A DNA stretch of 63,043 nt, counting the filler, from Bigelowiella natans CCMP2755 (Eukaryota; Protista; Cercozoa), in assembly GCA_000320545.1 (NCBI GenBank). It is 5 parts of 5 records of this genome, joined end to end, with 100 filler letters (N's around TTAATTAATTAA, not from the genome) between each part and the next. Parts side by side here need not be neighbours in the genome. Positions count along the whole stretch, not along the records: positions 25,139 to 36,062 come from ADNK01001918.1; 4 more parts are not named here. One strand, given 5' to 3'. The notes under the pieces are model-generated. The model was not told the origin of the DNA. It saw only the letters and a program-made list of their open reading frames with translations, and searched no databases. The translations under genes were made by a program, and so were the position numbers. Position 1 is the stretch's first letter. Each line of letters starts with the position of its first letter. Below, piece after piece: positions 10,583 to 63,043 of this stretch.

Positions 10583-13500
10583 ATGACGGAGATTGCACCG
10601 TTATTAGTTATGCGTCGAAATTCGGGAAGGGGCCGAATGTGGACGTGGTTGGGTGTTGGGATGATCGTAATGGCGGCCGCGGCTTTCATAGGCAGGTACC
10701 CTACCTCGCATTTCTGCTTGCCATTCCGGGCTATTCTCACATTTTGATTCATTTTTCGAATCGTGATTCTATCAACTTATTCGTGGAAAGCTAAATAAAG
10801 AGTTGCTTTTTTGGTGTAGGACCTACTTTACTTCCGGTTCCAATCTCGAGCTCCGACCATCTCGGCACACAGTTGGATTGTTTTCCCTTCCGTCAGCGTC
10901 TCGTCCTTTGTCACGTTCGAACATTCGCTTGGATTCGGCAACGCAGAGAAATCTGATCTCTAAACTAAACTTCCCATCACCGACAATTTCAGTATCCCAA
11001 TCACTGCATCCACGCGCTTCGGTCATTACAGAGGAAAACAAGAAAGAATCGTCTGACACATCCTTATTGCCGGATGTTGCGGTGGATGCGGAGATTCCAA
11101 CCCAATATGATTTTACAGCTGTAGAGGAAAAACTATATAAATTTTGGGAGAAAAACGGGTACTTTAAACCGAGGGAGCAGGAAGACGACGCGGCTGAAGA
11201 CGGAGCCCCTGCCGAGAAGAAATCATACGTAATTCCCATGCCACCCCCCAACGTGACAGGATATCTCCACATGGGGCATGCGCTATTCGTTGCAGTTCAA
11301 GACATATTGGCCCGATTTCACCGTATGCTGGGGGAGCCTACGCTTTATCTCCCAGGGACTGACCACGCTGGGATTGCAACACAGCTGCTCGTTGAGAGAG
11401 ACCTGGCGACAAGGAACCTGTCACGGCACGAAATGGGCCGTGAAGCGTTCCTAGAGAAGGTGTGGGAATGGAAGAACGAGAAGGGGGGCTACATCATTGA
11501 GCAGATGAAGCGACTCGGCGCATCCGCCGACTGGGATCGGGAGAAATTCACGCTTGACCCCGAGCTGAATGAGGCTGTCAACGAGGCCTTCGTCCGCCTG
11601 CACGAGAAGGGACTTGTGTACAGAGGCGAGCGGATGGTAAACTGGTCTCCGAATCTGCAAACCGCTGTTTCTGACCTCGAGGTAGAGTATGAGGACAGGC
11701 CTAACGGAAAGCTGTACGTGTTTAAGTACCCCATCGCCGACTCCGAGGAGCACCTTCCAGTGGCCACTACCCGCCCCGAAACCATTCTGGGAGACACGGC
11801 AGTTTGCGTTCACCCGGATGATGACCGATATCGGCACCTAGTCGGCAAAGAGGTCGTAGTGCCAATCGTAAATCGAAGAATCCCCATAATCGCTGACGAG
11901 TATGTAGATATGGAGTTCGGAACTGGGGCTCTGAAGATCACCCCGGCACATGACCCAAACGACTACGAAATCGGCAAGAAGCATGAGCTCGAGAGCATTA
12001 ACATCATGAACAAGGACGCGACGATGAATGGAAACGCCGACAAGTACAAGGGAATGGATCGATACGAGTGCAGGAAGCAGCTGTGGGCGGATATGGACCC
12101 TGCCGGGCTTGTGCTGAATGTGACAAAGCACGCAACAAGAGTGCCTATCAGTCAGAGGGGTGGGGAAATGATCGAACCCATGATTTCCACGCAATGGTTT
12201 GTGAAGGCCGATGGAATGGCGGCCAAGGCCTTGCAGGCTGTAAGATCGGGCGAGACCAAGTTCGTCCCCCCCCGGTTCGAACGAATGTGGGACTATTGGC
12301 TGGAGGACATCCGCGATTGGTGCGTGTCGCGCCAGCTCTGGTGGGGGCACAGAATACCAGTCTGGCACGTCCTCGATGAGGACGGAGCCTACCTGTCAGA
12401 CGAACGAATGCGCTCCTCCTCCTCCTCCTCCTCCTCCTCCTCCTCCTCCTCCGAGCTTCCCGGATACGTTGTCGCCAGAAACGAGGCGGAGGCTTACGAG
12501 AAGGCTCGGGGGGAGTATGGGCAGGATGTGAAGCTTGCTCAGGATGACGACGTGCTGGACACGTGGTTCTCTAGCGGCCTCTGGCCTTTCGCTACGATGG
12601 GGTGGCCGAACACCGAGAAGGACGACTTCAAGAAGTTTTACCCTGCCGCCATTCTGGAGACGGGGTACGACATTCTGTTTTTCTGGGTAGCGAGAATGGT
12701 GATGCTGGGCACAGAGCTCACCGGGGAGACCCCCTTCGAGACCATCTACCTGCACGGGCTAGTACGAGATGAGAAGGGGAAGAAGATGTCTAAGACGAAG
12801 GGAAACGTCATCGATCCCATCGAAACGATCGACAAGTACGGCGCGGATGCGCTGCGGTACTCCCTCGTCACCGGCGGGTCGCCCGGTCAAGACGTGCCCC
12901 TCTCCATGGAGAAAATAGAGGGAAACAGGAACTTTGCGAACAAGCTATGGAACGCAGGTCGCTACTTGATACAGATGGTGGAGCAGAAAAAGCAGCTGCT
13001 CTCCGCTGAGGAGCTGACTGCGAGCCTCGCCGTGGACGGCGCCATGACGCAGGAGAGCCTTGACCAGCTGCCGCTACCAGAACGGTACATCGTCTCCCGC
13101 GCGCACGAGTTGGTGGAGAAGGTCACCAGCGCGCTGCACGATCACCGGATATCGGAGGCCGGGTCTCTCGTCTACGACTTCTTGTGGAACCAGTACACGG
13201 CGTGGTACATCGAGGCTTCCAAGGTGCAGCAGAGCGAGACGAGCCTGAAGACACTCGTCTACGTGTTCGATACGTGCCTGAGGTTGCTGCACCCTTTCAT
13301 GCCGTATGTCACGGAGACTCTCTGGCAGCGCCTACCGCACCACGGCGACGCGCTTATGGTAGCTAGCTGGCCTTCAGTAGAGGGAATGGCCGCCTTGCCG
13401 CGAAGCAGCTCTGCGGAAGAAAAATTCGGTCTTTTGCAGGATATCGTGAATTCGGTGCGTTCCGCTCGCGCTGAGTACAAGGTCGAGCCGGGTAAGAAGA

Positions 13501-13904
13501 TAGGAGCATCCATCCTCATATCCGACAAAGACGGCTTGGAGGCGATTCAGCAGGAGCAGAGTGTGCTAGCTTTCATTGCCCGCATCGAAGAAAGCAACTT
13601 GGCCATCCAGGGATTCGAGGACTACAAGCCTCTCTCGGAGGGCAAGTCGGTGAAGCTGGTGATTCGCGATGGGGTTGAGGCTCATTTACCGTTGAATCAA
13701 TTGGTGGACGCCGAAAAGGAAAGGGTGCGCCTCTCGAAGCAAGCCGAGAAAATGGAGAAGGACATCGAGCTGCTGAAGAAACGTCTCGAGTCAAAGGGTT
13801 TTGTTGACAAAGCTCCTCCGAAGAAAGTGGAGGAAACAAGGCAGCAGCTCGAAGAAAAAGTATCGCAACTGGGAAATATTAAGGATACTATAGCATCCTT
13901 ATAG
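10583..13904 (+). CDS. valS: Valyl-tRNA synthetase, organellar (bacterial-type) with bipartite targeting presequence; exon 1 10583-10695, exon 2 10820-13904
   Basis: Motifs PPPNVTGYLHMGH (HIGH), DWCVSRQLWWGHRIP and KMSKT, plus a C-terminal coiled coil. Exon 1 (MTEIAPLLVMRRNSGRGRMWTWLGVGMIVMAAAAFIG, AG|gt) splices in frame to ag|G at 10820 and is followed by a Ser/Arg-rich transit-like stretch. Confidence 0.96.
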
Positions 13905-14467: not shown

Positions 14468-16520
14468 TTATTCAGCTTTCTTTGCAGCCTTCTTGTAGAG
14501 TGACTTCCAGGACGAAAACAAGGTCTTCGCTCTTCGAGAAATCTCCGCTGCATCACTCTTCCGGAATGGGTTCAACGTCTTGATAACATATGAAATTGCA
14601 AGAAGTTAAGCTTAAAAATAAAATTGGTGTCAAGGTAGGAGGCGCCTTCTATCACGTCATGTTTATACGTAAGGGCAGCCGTTACTTTTACATCATTTTT
14701 CAATTTTCCTTTGGCAACGGCATCATACCTTCGCAATAAGAGTTGTCTTGAGGGTTTGGACATCCATTTCAGCCCCCTGAAGCTTCTTTATCGCCTCCAA
14801 AATCTGAGTGCAATCGATTGCTAAATTTCCTATTCTTTGTTTGTCAATTTCCGGAAATAAAACCCCCACCTTATCATTATCAGAATCCTTGGACTCCAAA
14901 ACCGCTTGAATGACCTTGATTTCTGTTGTACTGTAGCGCTTTTTAGATTGCGCATGATTTCCACTCTCTGGGTCGGTGTCCCCGTGAACAACCTTCTCCT
15001 TCTTCCTCTGTTCGGTGAGTTTTCGCTTCTTAAGCAACTTTGCCAGCGCCGCCTCTTCCTTCCTTTTTTGCTCACGTTCGCTCTTCATTAATCCTTCCTC
15101 TATTGTCCAAAGGAGGAAAAAAAAGGGGGTAAGCTAGCGAGTAGTTGTGGGGAGCAGGCGGCGCGGAAAGCGTTTCGTTCGACACCTTTGTCTATTTGCT
15201 TGTTTAATGCTGCGTAGTCAGCGCCCCCGCGTCTGGATAAGGTAAAGAATGAATCAGTACACGTACCCCTCCTAATTTCTGTCCGCCAGCTTTCTCATGT
15301 AAAAATAGCTATATCATTCACACCGTCGCTTGCCTGTGACGACGTTCTTCTGATCGATGCCAACATCCTCCAGGCCTTCATGAAGGTCGTCCTAACGCCG
15401 TATGAACACCCGTTGCTCTAAGCTTTCAATATCTAAATCTCCCTTGAATCTATAGGTGTATAGGTGTACTTACGGAACAGAACGTCTACCTCGAAGGTCC
15501 ATTTGAGCGTATTCTCGCCCTTTTTTTGCCACACAACCTCCTCTGTGGAACTCTTTGCTAGTTTTATTCTCCACCCATCCATCTCGATGGTGTTCGCAAC
15601 TTCCTTCAATTCATACTTGAGGCCATTTCCAAATTCTGCGTGAGATCCTCTGACCTTTATTGTATACCCAAACTGGGCGTGGTTCCAAACACCTTGAAGG
15701 TCTGTTTTACGAGGAGGGAGGAGGAGGAGGCAGGGAGGAGCACAACGCAAGGGGTAGTGCGATCAGAAATTCACTCATTCACTGGATGCCTAACACTTTC
15801 CCCATACTTTTTAATGAGACTTCCTCCATGGCTTTCGCGTGCTCGAAGGATACACAAAGAAGTTGTTATATCCCCAACGCACGAAGCTGTCTCCACGTCC
15901 TCATTCAATATCAGCACTGCAAGAAGGGGAACGTCAAAAATCAGATAAATCGCCAGGTAAATAACCCTGCGTCACGAAAATATTGTTGTCGCAGACACAA
16001 AACAATCGGTGTTTTCGCAGTTGTGCGTCTCGAGATAGATGTTTTCGGCTTGAGTTGTTGCCGTGTTGAAGGAGGGTTGAAAACGAATTGCTTCCCGTCG
16101 ATTTTCAGGTAAAAACGGATCTGTTTTCGCTCTACGACTTGTACGAGTCCCTCCTAAGACAGACGGCGACAAGGGAAGACAACAGATTTCGGGAACAACA
16201 GCATCCGGTTTTATCTTGGAAATCTGTATTGAAATCATGTCGCACTCAGAAAAACGCCTTGATCGGTTCCGATTGAATGTTAAAGTATTCCAAGCATCGA
16301 CCTCCGACTGGCTATACCCAACACGTCTTCCCTTCGTGTGTCGCGAGCGCGTTCGTACGCCTCCTCCACCCTTTGCACCGGTGAAGCGAGGCAATTTTGT
16401 CGTCATCGTCGTCGTCGAAAGCTTGTGCAAGGTTGATTTGAATCTGTGGAGAGGTTGTGTGAGTGTTGGTTGTGGGTTAGAGACGGGGAAGAAACAGGTG
16501 GAGGCTAAGACGAGCACCAT
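14468..16520 (-). CDS. TFIIS N-terminal (LW/Med26-like) domain protein with CHZ-like motif (multi-exon; start uncertain)
   Basis: Spliced C-terminus ILEAIKKLQGAEMDVQTLKTTLIAK-TLNPFRKSDAAEISRRAKTLFSSWK matches the TFIIS-N pattern. Upstream exons give LEDVGIDQKNVVTGKRR-RGGADY (CHZ-like). Stop at 14468-14470. Confidence 0.7.
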
Positions 16521-16703
16521 GCTTCTGGTGTCAATTCCCCCTCATTTCCCCTTTGCTCAGAGCACGAACCAGGCAACGAATCTGAGTAAGCTGTTGAAGA
16601 ATCCATTGTCAAGGCGATTCTTTACGAAGTAATGCATCAAGCATGAAGACCCTCCTCTCGTTAGTTTGAAGAGTTCAAAACTACTTTCCTCCTTGCACCG
16701 AAA

Positions 16704-18528
16704 ATGGGATCGCTTGTGGCAACACCGTCATTCGCCACCAACTGTAACTCCCGGAGAAGGAGAGAATTCCGTCCGAAATCGTTCGCATCGCTTCAGGTGA
16801 TGGATTGATTACCACCGCGTACAATGTGCTGTCACTCGGCTAATGAACGCCTTTATTTGTTGGTGTGCCATTTCAAAGAGCGAAAACATGAGATTGCTAG
16901 AGGAAACAGAGAACCTCGCTGTTCAAGTGGAGGGATGGAAGCGTTACCGCTCTAAGCGCCTGGTGGAGATTGAACGTCTAAAAAAAAAGATTGCGGAATT
17001 GAGGAGGCTTCATGCAGGTACACACCGCCAACAACCATTCAAATCATATCTCAAATTTGTCCATTCAGGCTCTGGACAGGGATCGTCATCAACCCTGACG
17101 ACGATCAACGAATCAACTAGCGAATCATCAGCAAGGATTCTGAGTACAGGAGCGGACGCAATCTCGCAGGGCAACATAGATTGGAACCAAGCAAGGGTCC
17201 ATCGGCTGCGAATGGATTGTCGCAGCAGCAGGAGCAATAGCTCGAATAATACCTACATTGATGATGGAAAAAGAGGCACTTTTAAGGGATCTGCTACCTC
17301 GAGACACTCTGATGTGTTACTCGGAAACACAAGGCCAATGCTGCCCCCATCATCTCCGAAGAAATCACAGCAGCAGCAGCTGCCGGATCGATATCAGAGG
17401 GACAATGAGCTCAGCCACCGCCATTTTCACGACCGGAAAAACAGCTGCACCTCACTTACGAGTACCGTCGCCACTGGCAAATCAACCGTTGGATCAGCTA
17501 TAAATTGTAGTCAGGCTACTAACACGCAACTCGAGATTGAGGCGGAGGCCGCACCGATTGAAACATCACACGATGTTACAAACAAGAGCAAGGTCACCCA
17601 GCCCCAAAGAAAGTTCTACTATCGAATGAACGACATCAAGGTCGTCCAAAAGGTGGGGGAGGGGGTATTTGCAAAGGTCTTTAAGGTAGAAATACTGGCG
17701 AATAAGAAAATCGCAGCTCTGAAAGTGCCGAAATCAGCGGATGCGCACAGTAAATGCCTGAAGGAAGTCTTAGGTATTATGGGACTATCAGCGCAGCGTA
17801 ACATTCTGAGTATCCACGGAATGATAAAAACAGACTTTGACGACGCGGCCTTTCTACTCGAGTTCTGTGAGCTGGGTTCGCTGGACAAACTTCACGATAA
17901 GTTTGACTTGAAGCAAGAGAGCTGCTTCTACGGCATCGCCAGGGGAATCTTCATGGGCCTTATGCACCTGCATATCCACGGCTTCATCCACAGAGAGATT
18001 GCTTGCAGGAATCTGCTTGTGAGGAGAGACTGGAGCATCGCCATTGCTGATTTTAACCTTGCTGTCCGTAGTCATGATGCAAACGGTGAGTTCCAGGCTG
18101 TTCCTGGCGAGTCCCTGCCTTGGCCTTGGATGGCGCCTGAAGCTCTTAAGTATCTTACTTTCTCCTTCAAAAGCGATGTTTGGGCGGCAGGTGTAGCTCT
18201 CTGGGAGGTCCTGAATAAGGGCAAGGTGCCATATTCGAGCAAGCGCGGAACTAACGCTACTATGAACACGATTTCTCTGATATTGAAAGGCTCCTTGAAG
18301 CTACCGGTGAAAGGTAAGTACAAGAAGATTGTTATGGCTTGCTTGGAGGGGGACAGGCACCTAAGGCCTGATGCATGCGACGTATTCATTGACTACATTC
18401 CGGGAGGCAGGAAGTATATACTACAGTACGGCACAAAAGAAATGAGAAAGTGGTCGGAAAAGAGATTCACTCAAATGCTTATGGCAAGGAGCAGACCGAC
18501 AACGTCACATTCGATAAACACGGTATGA
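16704..18528 (+). CDS. Tyrosine-kinase-like protein (probable pseudokinase); exon 1 16704-16796, exon 2 16879-18528
   Basis: Motifs GEGVFAKV, AALK, HREIACRN, DFN, LPWPWMAPE and SDVWAAG, with an N-terminal coiled coil. The upstream exon splices in phase 0. Confidence 0.85.
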
Positions 18529-29770: not shown

Positions 29771-29829
29771 CACACAAACACAAATATAGACCGGTTGGAG
29801 GATTAGATCAAGCAAAGGACCACGATTGA

Positions 29830-31150
29830 GTCGGGACTTGCGGTCAAGCATGAGCTTCAGCTCTTTTTCCACTGCATACTCCTGTTTAAGTGTGCATCCG
29901 TAAATACTACAATTACGATAACACTGAAGAGCAGACATGCGAACTTTTGAGGAACTAATAGAGTTGATGCAATCTACCCCGCATTGGAAAATCTCTTCGT
30001 TTCAGTTGCCGAATATAAAATGCACACAACCTGCTGCTTAATGCTGCCGCTCAGTGGATTTTTCGCATTCTTTCTGTATCTCTTCGAGTTTCGGTCGATG
30101 GCGTCAGCACTTACGATCCCCAACCCTATTCTGGCGGAGTTCTTCTTGTCTTGCAACGAAGCGTTTATCTGCGTTGATTCCTCCGCGATGGTGTCGCGGG
30201 ATTTCTTTTGCAACGGTTCCATCAGGCTACTCGTTAGCTTCTTCGATTAATTGCACTGCGAAAAAATATTGCACTAGTTTCGTGAGGAAATCAAACGAGT
30301 GGGGGCGGAACACAGAAGATAATTGTTGTCGACGTCACCAGGTGTTGTGAGGAGAATCGAGCATGAAGCGGTCATGGTCCAACAAGAGTGACACCCTGTC
30401 CTGAGCACAATCCTTGTCAACTGAACATCTCTGCGCTCATGTCTTGCACACAACATCATTAAACGTGTCTTCAGTGGGGGGGGGGGGATGTGCAAGGGTG
30501 CATCAAGTAGGACCCACAATTCAACCTTGTGAATCTGGAAGACGAACATTGCTTTCAGATTGGCTTTCAGATCATGGAAATCACAGAAACACATGGCATT
30601 TCTGCAGATGATTCTGCATTTGGGCTGAAATGAACTGAATCGGAGGAGATTTAGGACACATGGTGTTCCATCAAAGTCTCATTTCTTTCTGAACTTGGTG
30701 GGCCGTTCGAATGCAGATTTCATGATGACTCAAAGATGGGCCGTTTCTTGACGGCGATTATCCCAATCACTTGTCGTTTTGTTTTTCTGGAGTGTTGTGC
30801 AAGAAGTCGCATTGTGAGTCTCAGCTTCAACTTGGAGCTTTTTGAAGTGTGTCGCTGACCTGTGTTTTGGCTTGCAATGATTGATTCCTGCAGATTCCAA
30901 AGTGTGCTTGTGAGCTTGTGAGCAATCAAGAAATGGAATGCCTGTCTGAGAGAGCTTGAAGCATGTCGCTAAGGAACAACGCCTTGTATTTTGGCCTTGC
31001 ATTGATTTCTGCAGATTCCACGCTGCAAGTCGTTGGTATTGCCTTACTTGGGTGTTTTGGTCGAGCACCGTAACAACACTGGGGGAAATCTCCTGTGGAT
31101 TGATCTTGCGACAACCATTTAGAGCTGATAATTGTCAGAATCGCCACGCG
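29830..31150 (-). pseudogene. Broken, TpA-depleted gene or TE relic
   Basis: Fragmented minus-strand ORFs in shifting frames, with an internal repeat ESAEINARPKYKA / ESAGINHCKPKHRS. Only 4 TA dinucleotides in 30322-30969. Confidence 0.45.
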
Positions 31151-31432
31151 TTTTGCTCAACATAGCACTCTCTTCCTTCACACTTCGTACCCAGGTCAAC
31201 GCCGCCCCCTGTTTGAATCCTTGCTCGTGCAAGCCTTCGCTTTCTACTTGGTTCGAGTGGAGGTGTTTCTGGGGAGGCAGATTGAATGGAGAGTGAAAGC
31301 GTTGCATGGCCTTCCGAAAGAGTTTGGCAGTTGTTTCCTGCGGGGAGAGATTTTGTAAGAGTGCGGCTTTCATTTCACTCTCTGACCGCCTTTTCTCCCT
31401 CCCCATTCTCAACATTAGGCTCATTAAACTCA

Positions 31433-33489
31433 ATGCGTGTATTGGTCTCCGTTGTCTTACCGGCGATCCTTGCCTCTGCAGCTTGGGGACCGCCCCCTGC
31501 ATCGGATGGCATCGCTGAAGCTCTTGCGAAGATCAAAGGCCAGCCTATTCCTCAAGGAAGAGCTGTAACCCAAGGAAACACCCCACAGGTAACTGCTACC
31601 GTCGCTACGGCCCCTCTCCCTGCTACTCCTTCTGTAACATCTGCTATTGAAGAAGACTCAGCAGAAAGTACCCACGACTCTCTCCATCCAATCGGCGATG
31701 ATGCGGCAGTGGGAGCCTCTTCCAAGCCAGCAGCACTAGAGGTATCCGAAGAAGAGAAGATTCCTTCGGTCGAAGCAGCTCCAGGATTCGACATGAACGC
31801 TGGTTCTTCTACGATGAACGGTGAAGAGCAGCAAGGCGACAATAGCCAGGCAGCTGTAGCTTCAGCTGCTGCAGGCGCTGATGGAATCAACCCAGGCTTC
31901 TCGTACCTTGGCGCATCTTGCGGCTCCTCCAACTTGTCCGCCACAGTTTTCGCCTCAGAGTTCTTCTTTCAAGCTGTCAACTACAATGGGAAGGATGCGG
32001 AGGGGGTGGAGCCGCGTACTCTCGTAAATGCGTGCATGAAGAAGTGCGAGGTGGCTCAGACCAAAGACACGCAGCTTCCTTGCACCGGTGTCCACTTCGA
32101 CGAGGAGGGGAACTGCAAGCTTCACTTCATGGAGATGGATGTTGCTGCCTCTAGCGTCAGCTTTCTGAGTGCCAACAAGCCGTATGGTTGCTACCGCCGT
32201 GCTGATGTTCCCAGCTTCCAAACGTAATGTGGAATCTAGCATAGCGTTTCAAGTGGACGAAACAGAGAGAGAGTCGAAGTGTTTCATGATATGATGCGAT
32301 TGGCATTGAAAAAGGCCAATTTAGAGGGGGGGAGGGGATTTTCTGCGTCATTTGTTGAATTATTTGATTGATATGTTTATTCATTTGTTTTCGATTTTAT
32401 CGTGCATGATAAATCTGTAGTCCTGGGTACGCGCTCATCGGTGCTGCGGCATGCGAAAGCAGCTACAAGAAGCTATATGCAACTGTGGCGACCGAATTCA
32501 ATGCTCCATGGTCTCCTGTCGATATGATGTCCTACTGCTCCAAGATTTGCGACAGAAACCAAGACTGTGTGGGATTTACGGTACCACGACGCTTCTTCTT
32601 CCAAACATGTAGAAGAGATATCCGAAATTGTTACGCGCTGGCATCTTTGCAACGATTCCCCCTCCTGTCAATCTAGAGCACCATATTCTTAACTGACCTT
32701 TTTTTATCCGTGCATTTTCGCCTTTTGTGATTATCGTCTAGGCTTCTGAGACGTGCAAGGTGCTAATGGGCAGCATGCGCTCCGCGCCCAGCGAAATGGA
32801 AAAGACCTACCTCCAAAGTATGATTCTCCTCTCTCCAGCGAATCTTTCGAGTTTCAATATGAATCTTCTCTTTCTTCCCGACGTCGTTATCACCACTAAC
32901 GCCTTTTCAAACGAAAGCTCACCCTCCCCCCCCCCACCCCTAACCACTTACAGAGCCATTTGGCTGTTATCGAAAGCTTGGTGAGGGAGAAGAAGTGCTG
33001 GCTGAGGCTGAAGAGGCAGCACCGGAAGATCCCAAAGAAGAAGTAGAAGAAGTAGAAGAAGCAGCCGTTGGCTCTCCAGGCCCAACTCAAGCCGAGGCAG
33101 CTGCAGTAGGACGCATAGACATTGGGAAGGAAGAGAGTGCTACTGTAGGTGTGGAGGAGGTGGCCAAGCCAGAATCATCTGCGGTTGAAACGACGGCCGA
33201 GGCTCAACAAGAAGAAGTAGGAGAAGAGACTTCTGTTCATGCAACGACCTCTACCGAAGATTTGGAAGCTCAGAAACCAAATGAGTCAATAACTCCAACA
33301 TCTGCTATTGAAGAGCACGAAGAGGCTCAGGAGGCCTCCGCTACTACTGCTGCTACCGAAAATGATACCGCTACTAACGATGCAGCTGAGGAAACGACGA
33401 AAGAAGTTGTGAATTTAGAGGAGGTGCCAGCGAAGACAACCCCTGCAGCAATAAGTGACATCTATCCGAACGTGCAGGCACTCTTTTAA
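31433..33489 (+). CDS. Secreted acidic/Ala-rich protein with PAN/apple-like Cys domains (multi-exon)
   Basis: Signal peptide MRVLVSVVLPAILASAAWG. Cys modules ACMKKC...CTGVHF..GNCKL and YCSKICDRNQDCVGFT. Glu-rich final exon ends at 33489. Confidence 0.65.
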
Positions 33490-34819
33490 GCTAGTCAACA
33501 CTGGTGGTGCTGTATGCGGGTGATGGACTGCTACAATTCAATAGATTGATCAGAGTGCGAGGCGGCATTTAGGGTGAAATTTATCATGGCGCTTACCTTG
33601 TTGATGTCTTTATTTTAGCATTGTATCGTAGCGAGCATCAACAAAAAGAATAGCGCGCTGAGGGATGGCCGGAACGTTTTGAAGCAGCGTTTTAGATTGT
33701 GCAAGTTTTTTGGCGCAACGCATAGCTAGCTAGCTAGCGTAGCCGCGATGCGTTTATGCAAATCCAGACATCCTAGCATGCCTAGCTAGATGCGCACGCA
33801 GACGCACATTTCTAGATCCAACAAATCTGCGTCTATAGCTAGCTAGCTAGCTAACTCTCATCGATGCATCATCATCTGCTAGCTAGCTAGCTTTGGGGCT
33901 AATCTAGTAATGTGATCATGCCATGGCATGCTGTCATGCACTACACATAGCTAGATAGTCATTGCTAGATTGTCGACGACCATCATCACACAACTTAATC
34001 ACGTACTGGACAAGCTACACTAGTATATTGTGAGCGGAGAAGAAAATGATGGGAAAGTTGAGCAAAAATCCCTTCTAGCCTTGCTACATGGCTTGATGAA
34101 GGCAGGGAATGCTGGAATGGTTTGAAGCTCACATCACATGATCATGCTGACATGCGCTAGCTAGCTAGCTAGCTAGCATGGTCTAGATGTGGTGCTCCTT
34201 TTTTTTTCAAAACTAAAATTTGACAAGCAAATTGTTGTTCAATTGAACTCATTCTTTGTTGGTTCCAGCACGCTGTGCATGCTCAAACACTTTGCTACAT
34301 CTTCTAGATTTTTCAGATCCACTTCTGCATTTTTGACAGCTTGTTTTAGCTTTTTCTCGACCCTCTTGATCTGGTTTAGAACATGATTCGGGCCCACACA
34401 CACGCGCGCGCGCACACACACACTCGCACATACAGACATCTCTGGAACTAGACGTAATGCATCTATCATCAGGGGCTAGCTAGCTAGATCGCGACAGAGC
34501 TGGCTCGTGTCTTTGACACCCCTTCAAGATAGGCGTCGTATGCGGGCGCTGAGGGACAAGTCTCATGCGCACAAGCAATTGTTGCTGGTGGACGGAGTAG
34601 CACAGCCTCGAAACGCCGCGGCAAACCAACCTGGTGACAGAATCAAACTCAGAGTCAAATGAAAACCAAATCAAAGAGAACTAAATGATGATGCTCATAA
34701 AGATGAGTTCTGTCTATGGCATCAGCGAAACGAACGTTGTCTCTTCTGAATCAAGATCATCGAACAAATCATCAAATCGGCTTCGAAAATTTGTTTTTCC
34801 ACATCAAACTATCGTTCTT

Positions 34820-37760
<2,941 letters not shown>

Positions 37761-39385: not shown

Positions 39386-40646
39386 TGGCTCCGTGTGTTC
39401 TCCTGGCCGAAGGCGCTTCGATGAAGGACTAAACGGAAGGGGGTGGGATCCATGTGGTGGACACATATCTTTTGGATGCTCATTGCCTTGGGAAAGACGT
39501 ACATCTTTCGTCGCGTCATCTGCTATCATTACAGTGATAATGGTCTAGAGGTGCAGTGTAGCTGCTGCTACTGAGCCTACGATTGACTAACAACACATGC
39601 AAGGCTGCAGACACTCATTTGCTGTGGTCTGTGCAACATCTTCTGGAGCCTAGATCACGTCTCCAGCTAGATCTGTTGCACATCTGCATCGTCCCAAGTG
39701 GCACGATCCATCCACGCTACCTAGCTACGTGCGGTGAAGGAAAGCTAGAAAGGCACTTGGCGGCGAGCTGTTACACACTGTCATTTGTCGCGGGCATTCA
39801 GTGTCTAGAGTGTGCCTAAATGCGATGCAAAATTGATTTCATTACGGTGGCGGCATGCATGCATGGGAGTCGCGGTTGCATGCGTGATCGAGTGGCGATG
39901 CACCATCTAGCCATGCCAGCATGTCACAGCTTGCTAGCTTGCAGCACAACTGAACAAAGCGAACGCGCAAAATTTTTGCTGCCTCACGCACCATTCTGGC
40001 ATTCTCAAGCTAGCAAGCTAACTAGCTAGCTAGCACCAAGACAACTAGAACTGCACAGCTAGACAGCTGCATGCATGCACGTCTGGACGTGTCAATTGCT
40101 AGATTGGTGCATGCTTTCAACACCTGCGCATGCTAGCATGCTAGCATGGCTAGATGGCATGCAGTGACAATCAGTGGAACAGCTTTCGGCGGGCGCCAGT
40201 CAACCTTTTCCACTGAAGACTGTGTGAGATGCTCGGACTTGCTTGTCACACTGTGAACACACAACGTCGTTGAACGTGCATGCAGGCATGCCAGCATGGC
40301 TGACGTCGACAACACAGTTTCCCAGCTAGCCAGTCTCGAGATTCCCAGTCGCGAAGCATTTGAAGACGCTCAAACAGTGACTCAATTGCGCTTCGATCAG
40401 TGTTGCTCACGGGAAAGAGTCCGGGGTGACCCACTGAACGAACAGGGCAGCAGCCCATCCAGGTTCGTTTCGGGGGGGGGAAAGTTTTCATTCTAGTCAT
40501 TGCATAGTCGATCGTTTGTCGTAGCAATCAAATCCCATCGATTTAGAGACAAAACTGAACAGAATAAAACTCGGAAGGGAATAGCCTGCTGGGTCCAGGA
40601 AGGGGGCACGTCGCCTGGGTTGAATCAGCACCCGAGCCACTTCCCG

Positions 40647-41473
40647 ATGAAGAACATCGTCCGCAAGCGTGGAAGTCGACGACCCAATCGCTGTGGTGGC
40701 AAATTTAACCGTCCGGACGGCGGTCGGGGCAGGGGGAAAAGGTGGGCTTGCTTTCAACTCCTTCATGCACTCGTCATCGCAGTTCGGCTCCTCAATCTTC
40801 CTTTCTGTTCCTTGAATATGGAAATTTCAGACGGGGTCGTGGAAGGGGGAGGGGACGAGGACGGGGGCGAAGAAACGAGGGCGATGCAAAAGATGAGAGT
40901 GGCGCTGGTCGCAGCAAGCCGGCTTCGCAGCCAGCATTGAAGAGCTCTTTAAAAGGAGGGCTCGAAGTCGTTTTCACGGGAGATTCAAGGCCGAAGCCGA
41001 AGCCGAAACCTGTCGAAATTGAGGTTTGCTAGAGTCCTCTATGTACTTTGAATATATACGATGTCTCCCCTTGCAGGGAGGGGGAATACAGTGATAGAGC
41101 TCAGGCTTACAACAGTGCGCTTTGCCTTTTGGACGATTTCATCCCCATAAAGGAGGCCTGATCTCATATCTTAGCGGTATTCGGCACTAATTGTAGGTAA
41201 AGGAAACGATCACCCTCTCCCAGGATAACAGGAATATCATTAAGGACATCATCCTCGACGATGTACGTGAGGAACCTCCTCCTCACCATGTCCTATCTCA
41301 CCAAAATATATGTGTATAATGAACGGCGGTTGATCTGCCTATGATATTGAATGTCGATGCTCTATGAGAGAATACACGCTACTCGGGAGAACCAACGTGT
41401 ACTACGATATAGAAGCGTCTACTGATGACGTTCGCACGTCTGAATCGATTTTTTGATAGCACACACATGTAAA

Positions 41474-47058: not shown

Positions 47059-48770
47059 AGGGCGGTGGTGGGTCCAAATGGGTGTGGAAAGTCGACGCTC
47101 TTAGAACTTGTTCATGGACACCATCCACAGGTGACCGGTGGTGGTGGTTGTGTGCCTATACTGATGAGAAGATTCTGATGAGCACGCTGCTAATAGCACC
47201 AGTTGTGGTGCCCCTTCTCCTCAACCCTTCCTTTGCTCTCTCGCACTCCCGTTGTATTCCATCGTTGAGCGTGTTGTGCCGCTCCTGCTCATCTGTGTTG
47301 TAATGGGCGATGATAGGGGTATGCGAACGATATCTCGGTGCTAGGAATGGCCCGAGGGGGGCGGCCCCAGCAAGATGACAGCAGCCAAACGAATGATGGG
47401 AACACGTCAAGAGCGGAAGTCGCCTCGGAGAATATCGTGGATTCATCTTGGAACCTTTTCCAGCTTCGACAGAGAATCGGGGTGGATGATTTGGGGGGAG
47501 GAGAGAAGGGTTTTGGAGAGAAGTGAGGGACTTATTACATGCAGCAGGAGGTAGACCAGCAGCGATTCTACGAAATTAACGATCATATATAAGCGTATAG
47601 TATCACGTAATCAGATACAGGATTGAGATGCTTAGAGTGGTGGAGAGGGGAATGAACGTGTTTCTTCTTTTCCAACATCAGGTGGTCAACCCTCGGCTCC
47701 AAATGCGATACAACAAGAGGGAAAAGGCTAAGGACGTTGTTTTATCGGGGTCTGGCGATTTTCACAACAATCAAATTTTTAAAACGATTCTGGGGGGGTG
47801 GTGAGGGGGGTGGGTCATAGCGAAAAATATTGTCGAACCTTTATCTCAGACTATCACAAGTTTCCGAATCCTCTTTATGCATTCTTGCCGCTAAGGGTTT
47901 CCTTCTTACTTATTTCTTCTTGCTTTGGAGACCCCATATCTAGTTGCTTCTATGTGCGAGAGCATGTGCACTTGCAAGCATATTTATGCGTTTGTGTGTG
48001 TGTGTGGGCGTGCGCGCGCGCTTCTACTAAAAATGCGTTTACTTGTCCCTCATTTTTTTTCTCTTCCTCCGTGCACTTTGGTAGGTATTTCGACACCATA
48101 GGGTTGTACAATGCATGCAGTCTGGATCAACATGATGCTGCGGAGAAAATCATGAAAGTATATTTGTCGGTGCGTGGTGTGTATGTGTAATAGAAAGACG
48201 ACACCCCAGCTGACTCTTGGCGTTGGTTGTGTTTTGCAATCGAGCGTGAGCCTTCCATTGTCGCACAAAGAGAGTGACAAATATCATTTTGTTGTTGCTA
48301 CAATAAGAGGCGAGCTATGAGTTATATAACCTTGATATAGAAATATTTATTTATTTGTGTCCGTGTAGAAATTGGACATATGGGATCTCGAAAGTGTATC
48401 GTTTGCGGACTTAAGTCTTGGCCAGCAGGCTCGTGTTTTAGTGGCGAGAGCGATGGTAAAGGTAATACTACTACTGCCCGGTTTTGTTTTTTTGGGCTGT
48501 TGTTCCAACACAAGATGGATAATAACACGCACACACACACACACACACACAAATTTTGATGAATTATCAAAATGACAATTGCAGAAGCCCTGTTTGCTGA
48601 TCCTGGACGAGCCGTGCGCGTCTTTGGATGCTGAATCGCGCGAGAAACTCATTGCATCGATTGATGCATTAGCTGCCGGGAAGGACACAACCATTCTCTA
48701 TGTCACGCACCACGCCGATTCCGTGCCCAAATGCATTACCAATGTTCTTCGACTGTCAATCAATCTTTAG
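45076..48770 (+). CDS. ModF-like soluble ABC ATPase with two NBDs (multi-exon)
   Basis: NBD1: GENGAGKST, LSTGE, LARAL..PKLLLLDE. NBD2: VVGPNGCGKSTLL..GHHP, LSLGQQARVLVARAMVK-KPCLLILDEPCASLD, ILYVTHH..CITNVLRL. Confidence 0.85.
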
Positions 48771-48950
48771 AACAAATTGTGTGTTGCACACAATGAACTG
48801 TGCGACTGTGACATCTAGATCTAGAGATGCCAGCAGGAGAGACCGATCTAGCGATGTTGCACATGCTAGCATGTCACGTCAAGCTAGTCAAGCCACGACT
48901 CATCGATCGTGTCCAGGTGTTGTGCGCGCGACACCGGTCTCGTGGTCTAG

Positions 48951-49870
48951 CGGTGCACGCACGGCTGAATTTGCACTGGACATCAGCATCCCATTTCCAG
49001 CGGATCGGATGTGCTGGAGACTCGATCAATGATGGCCTGTGCGCGCTCGTCACTGTGCGCAGTTGAGCAGATGCAAGTCCACAGCAATGATGGATGCCAC
49101 GACTTGACAGCGCTGCTGCGTTGCATGAGAATTCTCTCTGTTTCTGTCTTTGTTTGAACCGTCGACAAACAAACCATTGACATCATTGGTTGCGAGTTCT
49201 GAAGTTGTCAGAGCCAAGTTGTGAATGGTTGTTTGATTGCTCTGTGTCTGAGACAAGTGAAAGGGAAGAACCCTGCCCAGTCGGGATTGGTCGCAACCAG
49301 AAGCCACTGACACACTGAACCCGCATGAACCAAGCGCACTCTCAAACACATTGACAACCAGGGGATGATCAATGAACAATGAACAATGAACAATGAAGAA
49401 AGCGTTGATCAAAACTACATGCGCCAGAAAATGAACAGAGCGTTGATCAAATCAGTCGCGAACTCGCAACGAACTAAACCCAGTGTTGGTGTGAACTAAA
49501 CACACCTCGCGAACAGGTTTAGTCGCAAACCATCCCTGTTGTTTTGCCTAAATGCATTGGAGATTCCGTGCTGCCACCATCGTCTTGTCGCGGATCTTGA
49601 TCGTTGGCGAATTTCATCAGCTTTTCCAGCAGCACAACCACATGCGCTCGGCGATTGCCCGGCCTGCCAATCACCGAGTTGCGAGCGTGCTCAGCAGAAC
49701 ACGCTCCGACTGAAGATCTCTCACGTGCGGGTTTACCACGGCGACACGTGCGTTTGGGATGACGCGATGAATGAGAACAGGGAGCGTTCGTCGTTGGCTC
49801 ATCCGTGGACAAAGGTTCAATCTTCATCTTCTTCTCAAAGTCACTCAAACACCTCAAACACGTTTCCCCT
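48951..49870 (-). pseudogene. Probable TpA-erased gene relic
   Basis: Coding-like but broken minus-strand frames, rich in Cys/His and lacking Tyr (ORFs 49050-49412 and 49519-49857). No TA in 48951-49415. Confidence 0.35.
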
Positions 49871-51591: not shown

Positions 51592-52822
51592 GGTATGTCT
51601 ACATGTACATGTTACAACGGTCGTAGCTACGCTTTATGTATGCATGTCATTGCTCCCAGCGATAACAACTCCTAACACCTACAAACATTGACTTGATGTT
51701 GAGGCTCACAAGGCTATTAGTGAAATGTTTGTCGGCTGCACCACAATGATCACTAACATTTGTACATGCTTGCAATGTCTATGGAATTTGTTGGTAGCAT
51801 CGGTCCATGGACATGTTCAAATGATGTGTCTGCATGCGTGTAGCTGTGCATGCGCAACGTCTACCCACAACCTGCCCCTTTCATCATCATCAGAATGTGC
51901 ACTTCACTTCACTAGTGCTAGAGTGCCCGGACAGCTGACTTGCATGCGCTTGCAAATGTTGCAGTTGTCACAGCTCGGAGAAAACAGCAAAACATCGACG
52001 TTGTCGTCGATCGTAATTGCAGACATGCTAGCATGGTGCACACCACTAGATCATGTCATGTGCATGCTGCACACACATCTAGCTAGCTAGACATGTCATG
52101 CATGCAGTGTCAGTGTCAGGTGTGTCCATTGCTAGATTGTTGTTTTGTTTTCAAGCATCTTCCTTTGCACGACAGTCTAGCATCGCAGTACGTGCTATGC
52201 GAGATGGTGGTGCACAATGTGCACATTGTCGCACAGCAACTTTTGCAACAACTCTAGAATTAGTTATCGCATCGCATTGTATTTCATGCGATCTAGCGAT
52301 GCTTGTGTAGCAACATCATGACTTGACACAGCTAGACAGCAGACTGCAGAGCACCACACAGCATCGTGAGCTACATCTAATTGTGTAGCATTGCGAAACA
52401 AGATTGGGAGAGGCTGTTTGTCCACCACCTAAATACATGACAAGAAATCTACTAAATTGAGGCCTCGTTTGCCGGGTCACAGGCAGCGCATGCGCCACAC
52501 ACTCGCACAGTTTGTTTTAGTATCATAGCACAATTACGCAATGGCTTCGTGTACAATCGCTGAGTCGGTTTCCTTATTAGTGTTGTCTCCGTGATCAACA
52601 TGATACATACTCATAATAAAAGGAAGTCTAGATAGTTCTGCAAGCTGCATGAACTCATAATTTCGTTCTTGGGCTGCGCAAGTTACTGAAAACCATCAGG
52701 TTTTTGGCCACGCGACATAATATTGCCATGTCGCATGACAAAAACTTTAAGTGCTTCGCTCGAACTTCAAATTCCGGTTTTAAATTATTACTGTACTAGT
52801 GGTCTTGACGATTCCCTACTGA

Positions 52823-60472: not shown

Positions 60473-60825
60473 TGTTACGCGCGAACCTTGAAGGGCCCAT
60501 GTAGCGCGTACCACTACGCGGGCACAAGTCACGTGCGACAACAAAGGGGTTGTCGCGGATATAGAATATAGATAACGTAGATATTAATACAGCATAGGCA
60601 CGTGGGTTCCGGCGGGACTCATGGCAGCACACCGGAAGTGTGCTGCCCCACGTGCGGCGGCATTCGCGAAAGCTTCGCGAATGATTACGCAGTGCACGAT
60701 TTAATAAAAATATAATCTTTAATAAAAATAAACACAACTCTTCAAAAGGAAGCAAACGTGCCTTTCCCCCCCCCTGCCTACTTGTGCACGTAGCGCCTCG
60801 GCCTGTGAACACCTTACGCGCAACA
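60473..60825 (+). mobile_element. 5' LTR (~353 bp) of an LTR retrotransposon
   Basis: Begins TGTTACGCG and ends CGCGCAACA (TG...CA, 8/9 inverted termini). Contains a TATA-like stretch near 60559 and three AATAAA at 60703-60733. Followed by a PBS-like sequence and gag. Confidence 0.8.
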
Positions 60826-60830
60826 ACCTT

Positions 60831-60848
60831 TGGCTTCCACACACGGGA
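60831..60848 (+). promoter_or_regulatory. Candidate tRNA primer-binding site TGGCTTCCACACACGGGA
   Basis: Starts with TGG (complement of CCA) 5 nt after the LTR end, and its reverse complement resembles a tRNA 3' end. The cognate tRNA is not identified. Confidence 0.6.
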
Positions 60849-60854
60849 AACGAT

Positions 60855-63043
60855 TTGACTAACAATGTCACAGCAGCTAGAAGAACAGCAGACTTTGGCT
60901 CGCAGGCCGTGCAAGGGCACGAGCAGAAACAGGAAAGGAAGGGCGATACGGACGCTAAGGAAGGAGGAGGAACACCTCCACAGGCACCGCCGGGACCAGC
61001 ACCCGGGATTAAGAAAGCAGATGCAGCAGCAGAGGCACTGGAGAACTTCTACGAGGCGGACGACGAGGACGTGGCCGCCGAAAGCAAGAAGGTCGTAATG
61101 GCATTACGAGCCTTGCGACCCAGGGCGAGCAACTACGCCAAACTGAAAGTATCGATAGAATACAAGTATCAGACACATGATGTTTGGGCAGCTATCATGC
61201 AGGACATCATGGATTACGAAGCAGACTTACCTCCAGAGTGGGCAGCTTTGTTTAGGAACGACGGGGGTCTGGGCGCCTCGCGGGGGACGACCCAGAGCAC
61301 CGTCAAGCAGCAGCAGCCGGTACAGCGGAACACCCAGTTCATGTCTGTTAAAACAGCACCGGTTATGATAACGAAATACAACGGGAAAAGAGGTGAGGCA
61401 AGGAGGTGGTGGAAGAACGCTAGGAGTATACTCTGCGACTTTACCCCTAACCCCACCGAAAACGACAAGCTCAAATGGCTAGCTATAATAAAGCAAGCCA
61501 TGGACCTTTACGAGACAGGCAGGACCCGGATCAGGCAGCTAGAGAAAATACACACTACAGTTAGTGGGCTACGAGACGTTGAGGCGATAATGAAGGCTTT
61601 TGTAAATGAACAGGATGCTAACTCCCTACCCCAGGCTATTAGAAAATACAGAGCAATGATGCAGCATGAGAGAGAACCTGTTAGAGACTTTGCCACGCGC
61701 TTCCAGGATATGATCGACGAACTACATGATTTTAATTACAACACAGGTGATGATCAGGCAAGGTTTGAAGAGTTCAAGTTAAAGATAAAGGAATCCACTT
61801 ACGTTACGGAGAAAGGCTACACCACGATGGAGGCAGCAGTGCAGGCTATATCCCTACGCGAGCAGGAGCAGGACCGCAAGTTTACCAGCCCTAAGGTACC
61901 TGGCATAGGAAACATTAACGCTATTAAGCCGCAGCGAGACTGGTACAAGGACAGGGAAGGTAACCGACGTTGCGGATACTGCTCACGTAAAGGGAAACAC
62001 ACCGCTAAAGACTGCAGAGACAGGAAAGAAGGACGACCCAGGATGACGATCAGGCAGCTCAACGAACACTACGAGAAGTTAAAGAGAAAGAAAGGCAGAG
62101 GACAAGGATATAACAACAGCAAATGGCAAGGCAGCAACAACGGGAAGAACAATAAATATAAGAACAAAAAGCAGAACAGTATCAATGCTATACAGCAGCA
62201 GATAAACGGAATATTAGATCACCTTAAGCAGGCGCCGACGAAGACAGCAGTACCAGCAACGCAGGACCAAGACAAGCCCATGACCCTAGACGACATAAAG
62301 AACTTAGGAGTATGCAACATTAATGACGAAGACGCTAACAGGACTATCAAAGTTGCTATGACCAAGGTTAAAGTTAAAGACAGCTACGGAGACTACAAGA
62401 AACTACCTGCCCTTTGGGATAGTGGCAGCATGCCGAAGTCCTTCATAAGCCTAAGCACAGTAAGAAGGTTAGGACTATTGGATCAAGTGACTAAGAAAGA
62501 ACGTAAATATGCTCAAGCAGACGGAAGCTCTTCCATGAAGACCGTCGGTGAGCTAATGCTAAAGCTACAGATACCTGGCAGCGACGCGGAGACCCAAATC
62601 AAGACCCGAGTAGCCATGACTTTATCCATGGAACTACTCCTCGGACAGGATGCCCTAGAAAAATTAGGGGGGATCATATCATTCTACAATCACAAGATAT
62701 ACTTTGCTAAGTTGCCAAAGAAGTCAGGCAGGACCATCAGCCAGAACATGATACGGCTTGACGAGTGGACCTCTGAGTCAAGCGTTAATGCGTTAGAGTT
62801 TATGGACCTAGCGGACAACAAGCTACCTACACCTACCGAGCTACGGAAGAAGAACCCCGGCAAGACCATCCGACAGATAACGGAGCTACTGGACAGACCC
62901 CCCCAGCTGATGATTGGGATATCGACAAAGGCAAAAGTACATTAATAAAATATTAAACGAGAAGTACTCTGACATCACCAGCCGACGACGAAGCCCTTCA
63001 GCAAGCTTACCCCAGGTAAAGGATCGAGCTTAAGAAGGGATAC
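60855..63043 (+). mobile_element. LTR retrotransposon gag-protease (probably Ty3/Gypsy), running off the window
   Basis: Gag motifs KYNGKRGEARRWW and QHEREPVRDFATRF, zinc knuckle CGYCSRKGKHTAKDC, aspartic protease ALWDSGS...LLLGQDAL. After frameshifts, IELKKG resembles the pre-RT region of Gypsy pol. Confidence 0.9.

Follow-up and report, generated by a model that had tools for sequence, protein, structure and literature searches.

A TA-erased island between two head-to-head genes of Bigelowiella natans, probably an old fragment of foreign or mobile DNA altered at TpA sites

Introduction

In a stretch of 63 043 nucleotides of Bigelowiella natans DNA (hereafter the window), the segment 30322-31150 is so poor in TA dinucleotides that a preliminary description, made from the sequence alone, called it a gene relic, struck by a process that turns TA into CA or TG and that left an apparent Tyr-to-His change in former coding DNA. 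The locus raises three questions: which process removed the TA dinucleotides, what kind of DNA did it act on, and how does the result coexist with the host genes on either side?

A process of this kind has been described in the same species. According to the main text of a preprint by Mettrop et al. (bioRxiv 10.64898/2026.01.13.699255), two integrated viral regions of B. natans have a mutation rate roughly 1000-fold that of the background, and 230 of the 231 mutations seen there are A>G or T>C changes, all at TpA and on either strand; the hypermutable NCLDV region is transcriptionally silent. The same text reports 124 genomic clusters that are TA-poor and CA/TG-rich, TA-poor coding sequences (324 and 470) enriched in transposase and reverse-transcriptase domains, many Pfams of likely host origin among the TA-poor coding sequences, and unannotated degraded genes, and it puts forward an ADAT2-like adenosine deaminase, Bn78255 with Bn77986, as an unproven candidate for the enzyme. 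Going by that text, the process and its reach into coding DNA are already in print for B. natans and are not new here. Our literature search found no second paper on the TpA process in B. natans and nothing on 5mC in this host.

That the island belongs to the nuclear genome of B. natans follows from a valyl-tRNA synthetase gene in the window, whose product shares all 859 aligned residues with jgi/Bigna1/45073, the second-best match standing at 73%. The gene (10767-13904) reads as one uninterrupted frame, 1045 codons long, from which the public model leaves out 29 residues around a poly-Ser run.

Results

Composition of the island

The features on which the argument turns are given here and below, one per line.

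30322..30969, no strand: TA-erased core, enriched in CA and TG and with CpG halved, defined by TA count and rho values
30970..31160, no strand: right shoulder, made of repeat-related sequence, with TA mostly kept (rho 0.56)

The low TA content noted at the outset was confirmed. The core holds just 4 TA (at 30460, 30508, 30652 and 30759) where 46.6 are expected from its composition; no 648-nt window in the 63 kb has fewer, and the median is 34. Against 60% of the expected number, the Poisson probability of such a count is about 3×10−8, a value to be read with the coordinates having been picked post hoc; a two-state segmentation placed the best-fitting core at 30324-30964. The loss of TA is real and is matched by a gain of CA and TG: rho in the core is 0.09 for TA and 1.61 for CA+TG, the CpG value being 0.50 as against a window median of 0.91. 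The host exons flanking the island have ordinary TA (rho 0.58-0.66). When about 36 TA and about 8 CG are put back, the core returns to the median composition of the window; about nine-tenths of its TA would therefore have been lost, and about four-fifths of the CA/TG gain would come from TA.

The preprint defines TA-poor DNA by rho of at most 0.43 for TpA and at least 1.52 for CpA+TpG, and a cluster by at least three consecutive 1-kb windows (main text of bioRxiv 10.64898/2026.01.13.699255). The TpA value lies below the first cut-off in the core, in the wider segment 30322-31150 (0.19) and in 1-kb windows over that segment (0.24-0.27). For CA+TG, where the combined formula used here may differ from that of the preprint (bioRxiv 10.64898/2026.01.13.699255), the value exceeds 1.52 on island coordinates (1.61 for the core, 1.55 for 30322-31150) and lies at 1.40-1.48 in fixed 1-kb windows. 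None of the 63 fixed 1-kb windows passes both cut-offs, and the island is not a cluster in the sense of the preprint. Among 1188 overlapping N-free windows of 648 nt, 17 pass both, and they represent three places: the island itself, 39851 and 48500-49700.

Edges of the island and its internal repeat

Depletion had been described as fading toward both edges, like a spreading domain. On the left there is a step instead: the ratio TA/(TA+CA+TG) goes at once from 24/92 in 29800-30321, which is background, to 4/135 in the core. On the right, the ratio in 30970-31200 (9/47) is indeed above that of the core (P = 8×10−4), but it is like that of the right host gene (24/138); between the two, in 31201-31416, it is 3/31. 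A two-sided spreading gradient around the core is not supported. On the right, just one observation points to partial mutation: repeat-related sequence crosses the core edge and retains TA there.

30840..30902, minus strand: repeat copy B, in the core, with TG facing TA, TA and CA of copy A
30955..31022, minus strand: repeat copy A, straddling the right edge of the core, with TA kept at 30970 and 30987

The internal repeat is genuine (alignment score of 79, against a maximum of 57.5 in 500 shuffles). Three of the roughly five clear differences in its conserved block are of the TA class, i.e. TG/CA (30848/30962), TG/TA (30856/30970) and TG/TA (30863/30987), copy B being named first. The Tyr-to-His change had been read from RPKYKA in one copy and KPKHRS in the other. 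The nucleotide part of this reading stands, since TAC (30986-30988) does face CAC (30862-30864); the codon effect depends on the frame. The two peptides come from different minus-strand frames (offsets of 121-124 nt), so the T/C difference alone has no codon effect, and in the other two frame pairings it would be Ile>Thr or a silent Asn. A 10-nt indel within the repeat brings the offset to 114 nt, and both copies are then in the most open frame of the island, where the TG/CA pair gives ATCFK and ATHFK. Such a Cys/His pair is what might be expected if a single Tyr codon had been mutated on one strand in one copy and on the other strand in the other, although it may also have arisen from CG. By translation only, one frame shows a third look-alike: ARPKH, 22 codons upstream of ARPKY.

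Transcripts over the island

Spliced contigs were taken from four runs (X15-X18) under three study codes, the RNA type being known from the spliced joints themselves. They give the following features.

30526..30539, minus strand: upstream 5′-UTR exon of the left host gene, of which only this end is visible, the true 5′ end lying further right (X17)
30401..30525, minus strand: 125-nt GT..AG 5′-UTR intron, wholly within the TA-erased core (deduced from the loose end of the X17 contig)
30339..30400, minus strand: spliced 5′-UTR exon of the left host gene, within the core (junction in four of four runs, X15-X18)
30256..30338, minus strand: 83-nt GT..AG 5′-UTR intron, with its donor inside the core and its acceptor outside
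30031..30255, minus strand: the left host gene's first coding exon, with the ATG at 30222
29882-30030, minus strand: GT..AG intron in the transcript of the left host gene (runs X15-X18)
31417..33591, plus strand: spliced right host gene, transcribed away from the island (contigs)

Over the leader, the contigs end at 30402 in three of the four runs and at 30358 in the other one. The contig of X17 has a loose end of 12 nt whose unique placement is 30528-30539, and the exon 30526-30539 and the intron 30401-30525 rest on that one contig end. Because an in-frame TAA lies upstream of the ATG at 30222, the island exons are 5′ UTR; exon 30339-30400 contains two upstream ATGs, which open uORFs of 21 and 15 codons. 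Contigs of the right host gene start at 31417 or 31418 in all four runs. Taken with the left leader, this places the island in the 1.2 kb between divergent genes, where it overlaps the leader of the left one. In the remainder (30540-31416), a contig of depth 3 covers 30562-30780 in X16 and there is no contig cover in X15, X17 and X18, which is not the same as silence. A 6% share of the short reads of raw RNA run X21 gave scant cover even of the flanking genes. An expressed, spliced and conserved gene had been named as what would refute the relic, and a silent pseudogene would lie outside any transcript. In part the refutation applies, exon 30339-30400 being spliced in four of four RNA-type runs; the transcription is that of a neighbour's 5′ UTR, not of a conserved coding gene.

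As to the two host genes, Pfam gave no match for the left one in 15 candidate frames except one chance match, and none for two long frames of the right one. For the product of the latter, a signal-like N-terminus is predicted; it also has low-complexity stretches rich in Ala and Glu and two segments containing Cys.

Coding potential and search for relatives

30277..31134, minus strand: most open frame, with two internal TGA; possibly a former coding frame (stop counts)

The description of the minus-strand frames as coding in appearance holds, weakly, for one of them. In the core this frame has 2 stops, against 7-12 in each of the other five (P = 0.046 by dinucleotide shuffles), and over 30322-31150 the corresponding P is 0.031. 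It shows no 3-base periodicity (P = 0.57). Open frames of 133 amino acids occur in 20% of shuffles, because the loss of TA deletes TAA and TAG. Former coding DNA at 30322-31150 is thus possible, the signal being weak, and the term gene relic keeps this one few-stop frame in its favour (P 0.03-0.05) while the protein searches gave it no homologue. Among 1.84 billion representatives, phmmer found no match to the most open frame at E 0.001. For two other minus-strand frames, word-seeded searches of longer proteins yielded 174 and 141 candidates, none of which matched. Pfam, run on all six frames, returned a single sub-threshold match, to HTH_70 (E 0.003; 18 bits, the cut-off being 27); none of the six frames matched PHROGs, and the ESM Atlas gave no usable match for two pieces. 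Pfam and PHROGs were the searches that covered the plus-strand frames. Three scans of viral contigs and one of metagenome contigs with the island gave no match either.

At the DNA level, contigs from three runs (X2, X12 and X13) match the window letter for letter across the island, and these runs may be the window's own source. In each of them the island lies in one contig, with flat depth in X2 and X12. No second copy was found among these contigs at 80% likeness, contigs being able to show presence and not absence. These contigs give no sign of present mutation activity at the island. Thirteen inverted pairs were found, none of which are terminal repeats. Elsewhere in the window, a 655-nt direct duplicate (36163-36813 and 36887-37540, 97.6% identical) flanks an N gap and is probably an assembly artefact.

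Other TA-erased islands and the TAG context

The window contains four further TA-erased islands. A second, stronger one (48770-49870) has no TA in 467 nt (48949-49415) and a normal CG content; Pfam found no match in its six frames. Although it was chosen on TA loss alone, it keeps 17 TAG against 7 TAH (P = 4×10−7). In the three others (33690-34620, 39600-40600 and 51690-52500), TA is lost outside CTAG and CTAG is kept; within the first of them, the segment 33830-34390 occurs in multiple copies among the DNA contigs and has many short CTAG repeats.

The effect of context was assessed in six regions chosen solely by TA loss at sites outside TAG, after simple repeats had been masked. TA survives at 22 of 622 sites without TAG, a value biased low by the selection, at 47 of 291 sites with TAG on one strand, and at 46 of 82 CTAG sites, the last count being one that the short CTAG repeats, a multi-copy family of the genome, may inflate. 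Window-wide, the corresponding survival is 0.27, 0.28 and 0.39. The island at 30322-30969 does not spare TAG (4 TAG against 18 TAH, Fisher P = 1.0). No significant skew of the products toward CTGH over CCAH was seen in any island (136:107 in five islands, as compared to 1413:1313 window-wide). The retention of CTAG in the other islands offers a testable clue to the target motif of the mutator, and one that is absent from the main text of the preprint. None of the words TAG, UTR, promoter, spread, trinucleotide and flank appears in that main text; the supplements of the preprint may cover the locus or the context.

The window also carries, at 60732-62945, a long intact frame resembling gag and aspartyl protease of a Ty3-type retrotransposon, by weak Pfam matches. 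With a TA rho of 1.09, this mobile element is untouched by TA loss.

Discussion

The idea that TA was turned into CA and TG by a mutational process agrees with the composition of the island, with its internal repeat and with the mutation-accumulation data for B. natans in the main text of the preprint. We consider it probable that 30322-30969 is an old fragment of foreign or mobile DNA, lying between head-to-head host genes, in which about nine of every ten TA were changed to TG or CA by the TpA process. Such a fragment would have inserted between the two genes and then become a target of the TpA mutator. An A>G change on the top strand would give TG, and CA would come from the same change on the bottom strand. 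Within a coding frame, Tyr would become Cys or His, and TAA and TAG would vanish from all frames. A minor loss of CpG, of some 8 sites as compared to about 36 for TA, may have contributed to the gain of CA and TG. Later, or meanwhile, the left host gene would have taken up the dead DNA as its start and leader exons; its transcription would begin at 30539 or beyond, with two introns spliced from the left end of the island. Since neither a parent nor a paralogue was found, the direction of change and the foreign or mobile origin are what we infer, together with the order of events and the enzyme. Several points speak against this reading: CpG is halved and TG and CA can be derived from CG, the coding signal is marginal (P 0.03-0.05) and shows no periodicity, the island falls short of the CA+TG cut-off in fixed 1-kb windows and is far too small for a three-window cluster, it is partly transcribed where the NCLDV region of the preprint is silent, the three DNA runs have no changed letter in it, and it lacks the TAG sparing of the other islands.

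A more detailed version goes further: an active host gene would owe its transcription start to a TA-erased coding fragment of foreign origin, along with upstream ATGs, splice sites and two of its leader exons, and TAH would be preferred by the mutator and TAG spared. As a whole we regard this as doubtful, though worth keeping in mind. If it is true, TAH preference and TAG sparing would narrow down the enzyme.

Other explanations have to be weighed. The same TpA mutator could have struck native host DNA, such as old 5′ exons, a promoter or a duplicated fragment of a host gene, and we hold this to be unlikely. Host splice sites and 5′-UTR exons do lie inside the core, the searches gave neither a viral or transposon match nor terminal repeats, and Pfams of likely host origin occur among the TA-poor coding sequences listed in the main text of the preprint; however, the sharp left boundary near 30322, beside host DNA at background level, resembles an insertion edge, and the flanking host exons have kept their ordinary TA. 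If the island were a normal TA-poor promoter and 5′-UTR region separating divergent genes, without any unusual mutational past, its position exactly between two transcript starts would be accounted for, and the window has further TA-poor stretches at 15901-17200 and 40150-41050. But those stretches have a TA rho of 0.3-0.4 and a CA+TG rho below 1.3, far from the values of the core (0.09 and 1.61), and we regard this explanation as very improbable.

Ordinary decay of methylated CpG to TG or CA, acting on DNA that was already TA-poor, yields identical products and would fit the low CpG of the core. We give it even less credit, because decay of CG cannot remove TA, the loss of CG accounts for only about 8 of the roughly 44 CA/TG gained, the second island combines a TA rho of 0.19 with a CG rho of 1.0, and two of the repeat differences oppose TA to TG. 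Hardly credible at all is a protein-coding gene that is expressed and conserved and has an unusual composition: two open frames of 133-134 amino acids lie in line, X16 has its depth-3 contig at 30562-30780, and HTH_70 is hit below threshold in another frame, yet splicing makes the transcribed part a UTR with an in-frame stop ahead of the host ATG, TA loss by itself should produce long frames, and the 1.84 billion representatives hold no homologue. The old foreign or mobile fragment remains our preferred reading.

Several known systems resemble the island in part. Ascomycete repeat-induced point mutation (RIP) wrecks inserted DNA by C>T changes, for the most part CpA to TpA, and increases TA. 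It has in common with the island a local, context-specific transition mutation of inserted DNA, but the signature is the mirror image: instead of TpA enriched and CpA/TpG depleted, the island has TA down and CA/TG up, and no second copy of it was found. CpG decay of 5mC-methylated transposons gives TG and CA and leaves TA untouched; the products are the same and CpG is halved in the core, but this decay would cover about one-fifth of the CA/TG gain of the island. The exaptation of transposons as promoters or 5′-UTR exons is a general phenomenon, to which the island is similar in that a host gene draws leader exons and splice sites from one end of it, the difference being that its mobile origin is a putative one.

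The closest likeness is to the TpA hypermutation of Mettrop et al., as presented in the main text of their preprint: the species is the same, TpA loss is accompanied by a gain of CpA and TpG, and TA-poor coding sequences are reported. Compared to their clusters, the island is shorter than 1 kb, is partly transcribed as a host 5′ UTR and is also reduced in CpG; compared to their hypermutable regions, it shows no new mutation in three DNA runs, a number too small for a rate. The island is one more example of a process already reported in B. natans, and one in which TA-erased DNA stands in a working host leader, so that the reach of the mutator and its leftovers touch host genes.
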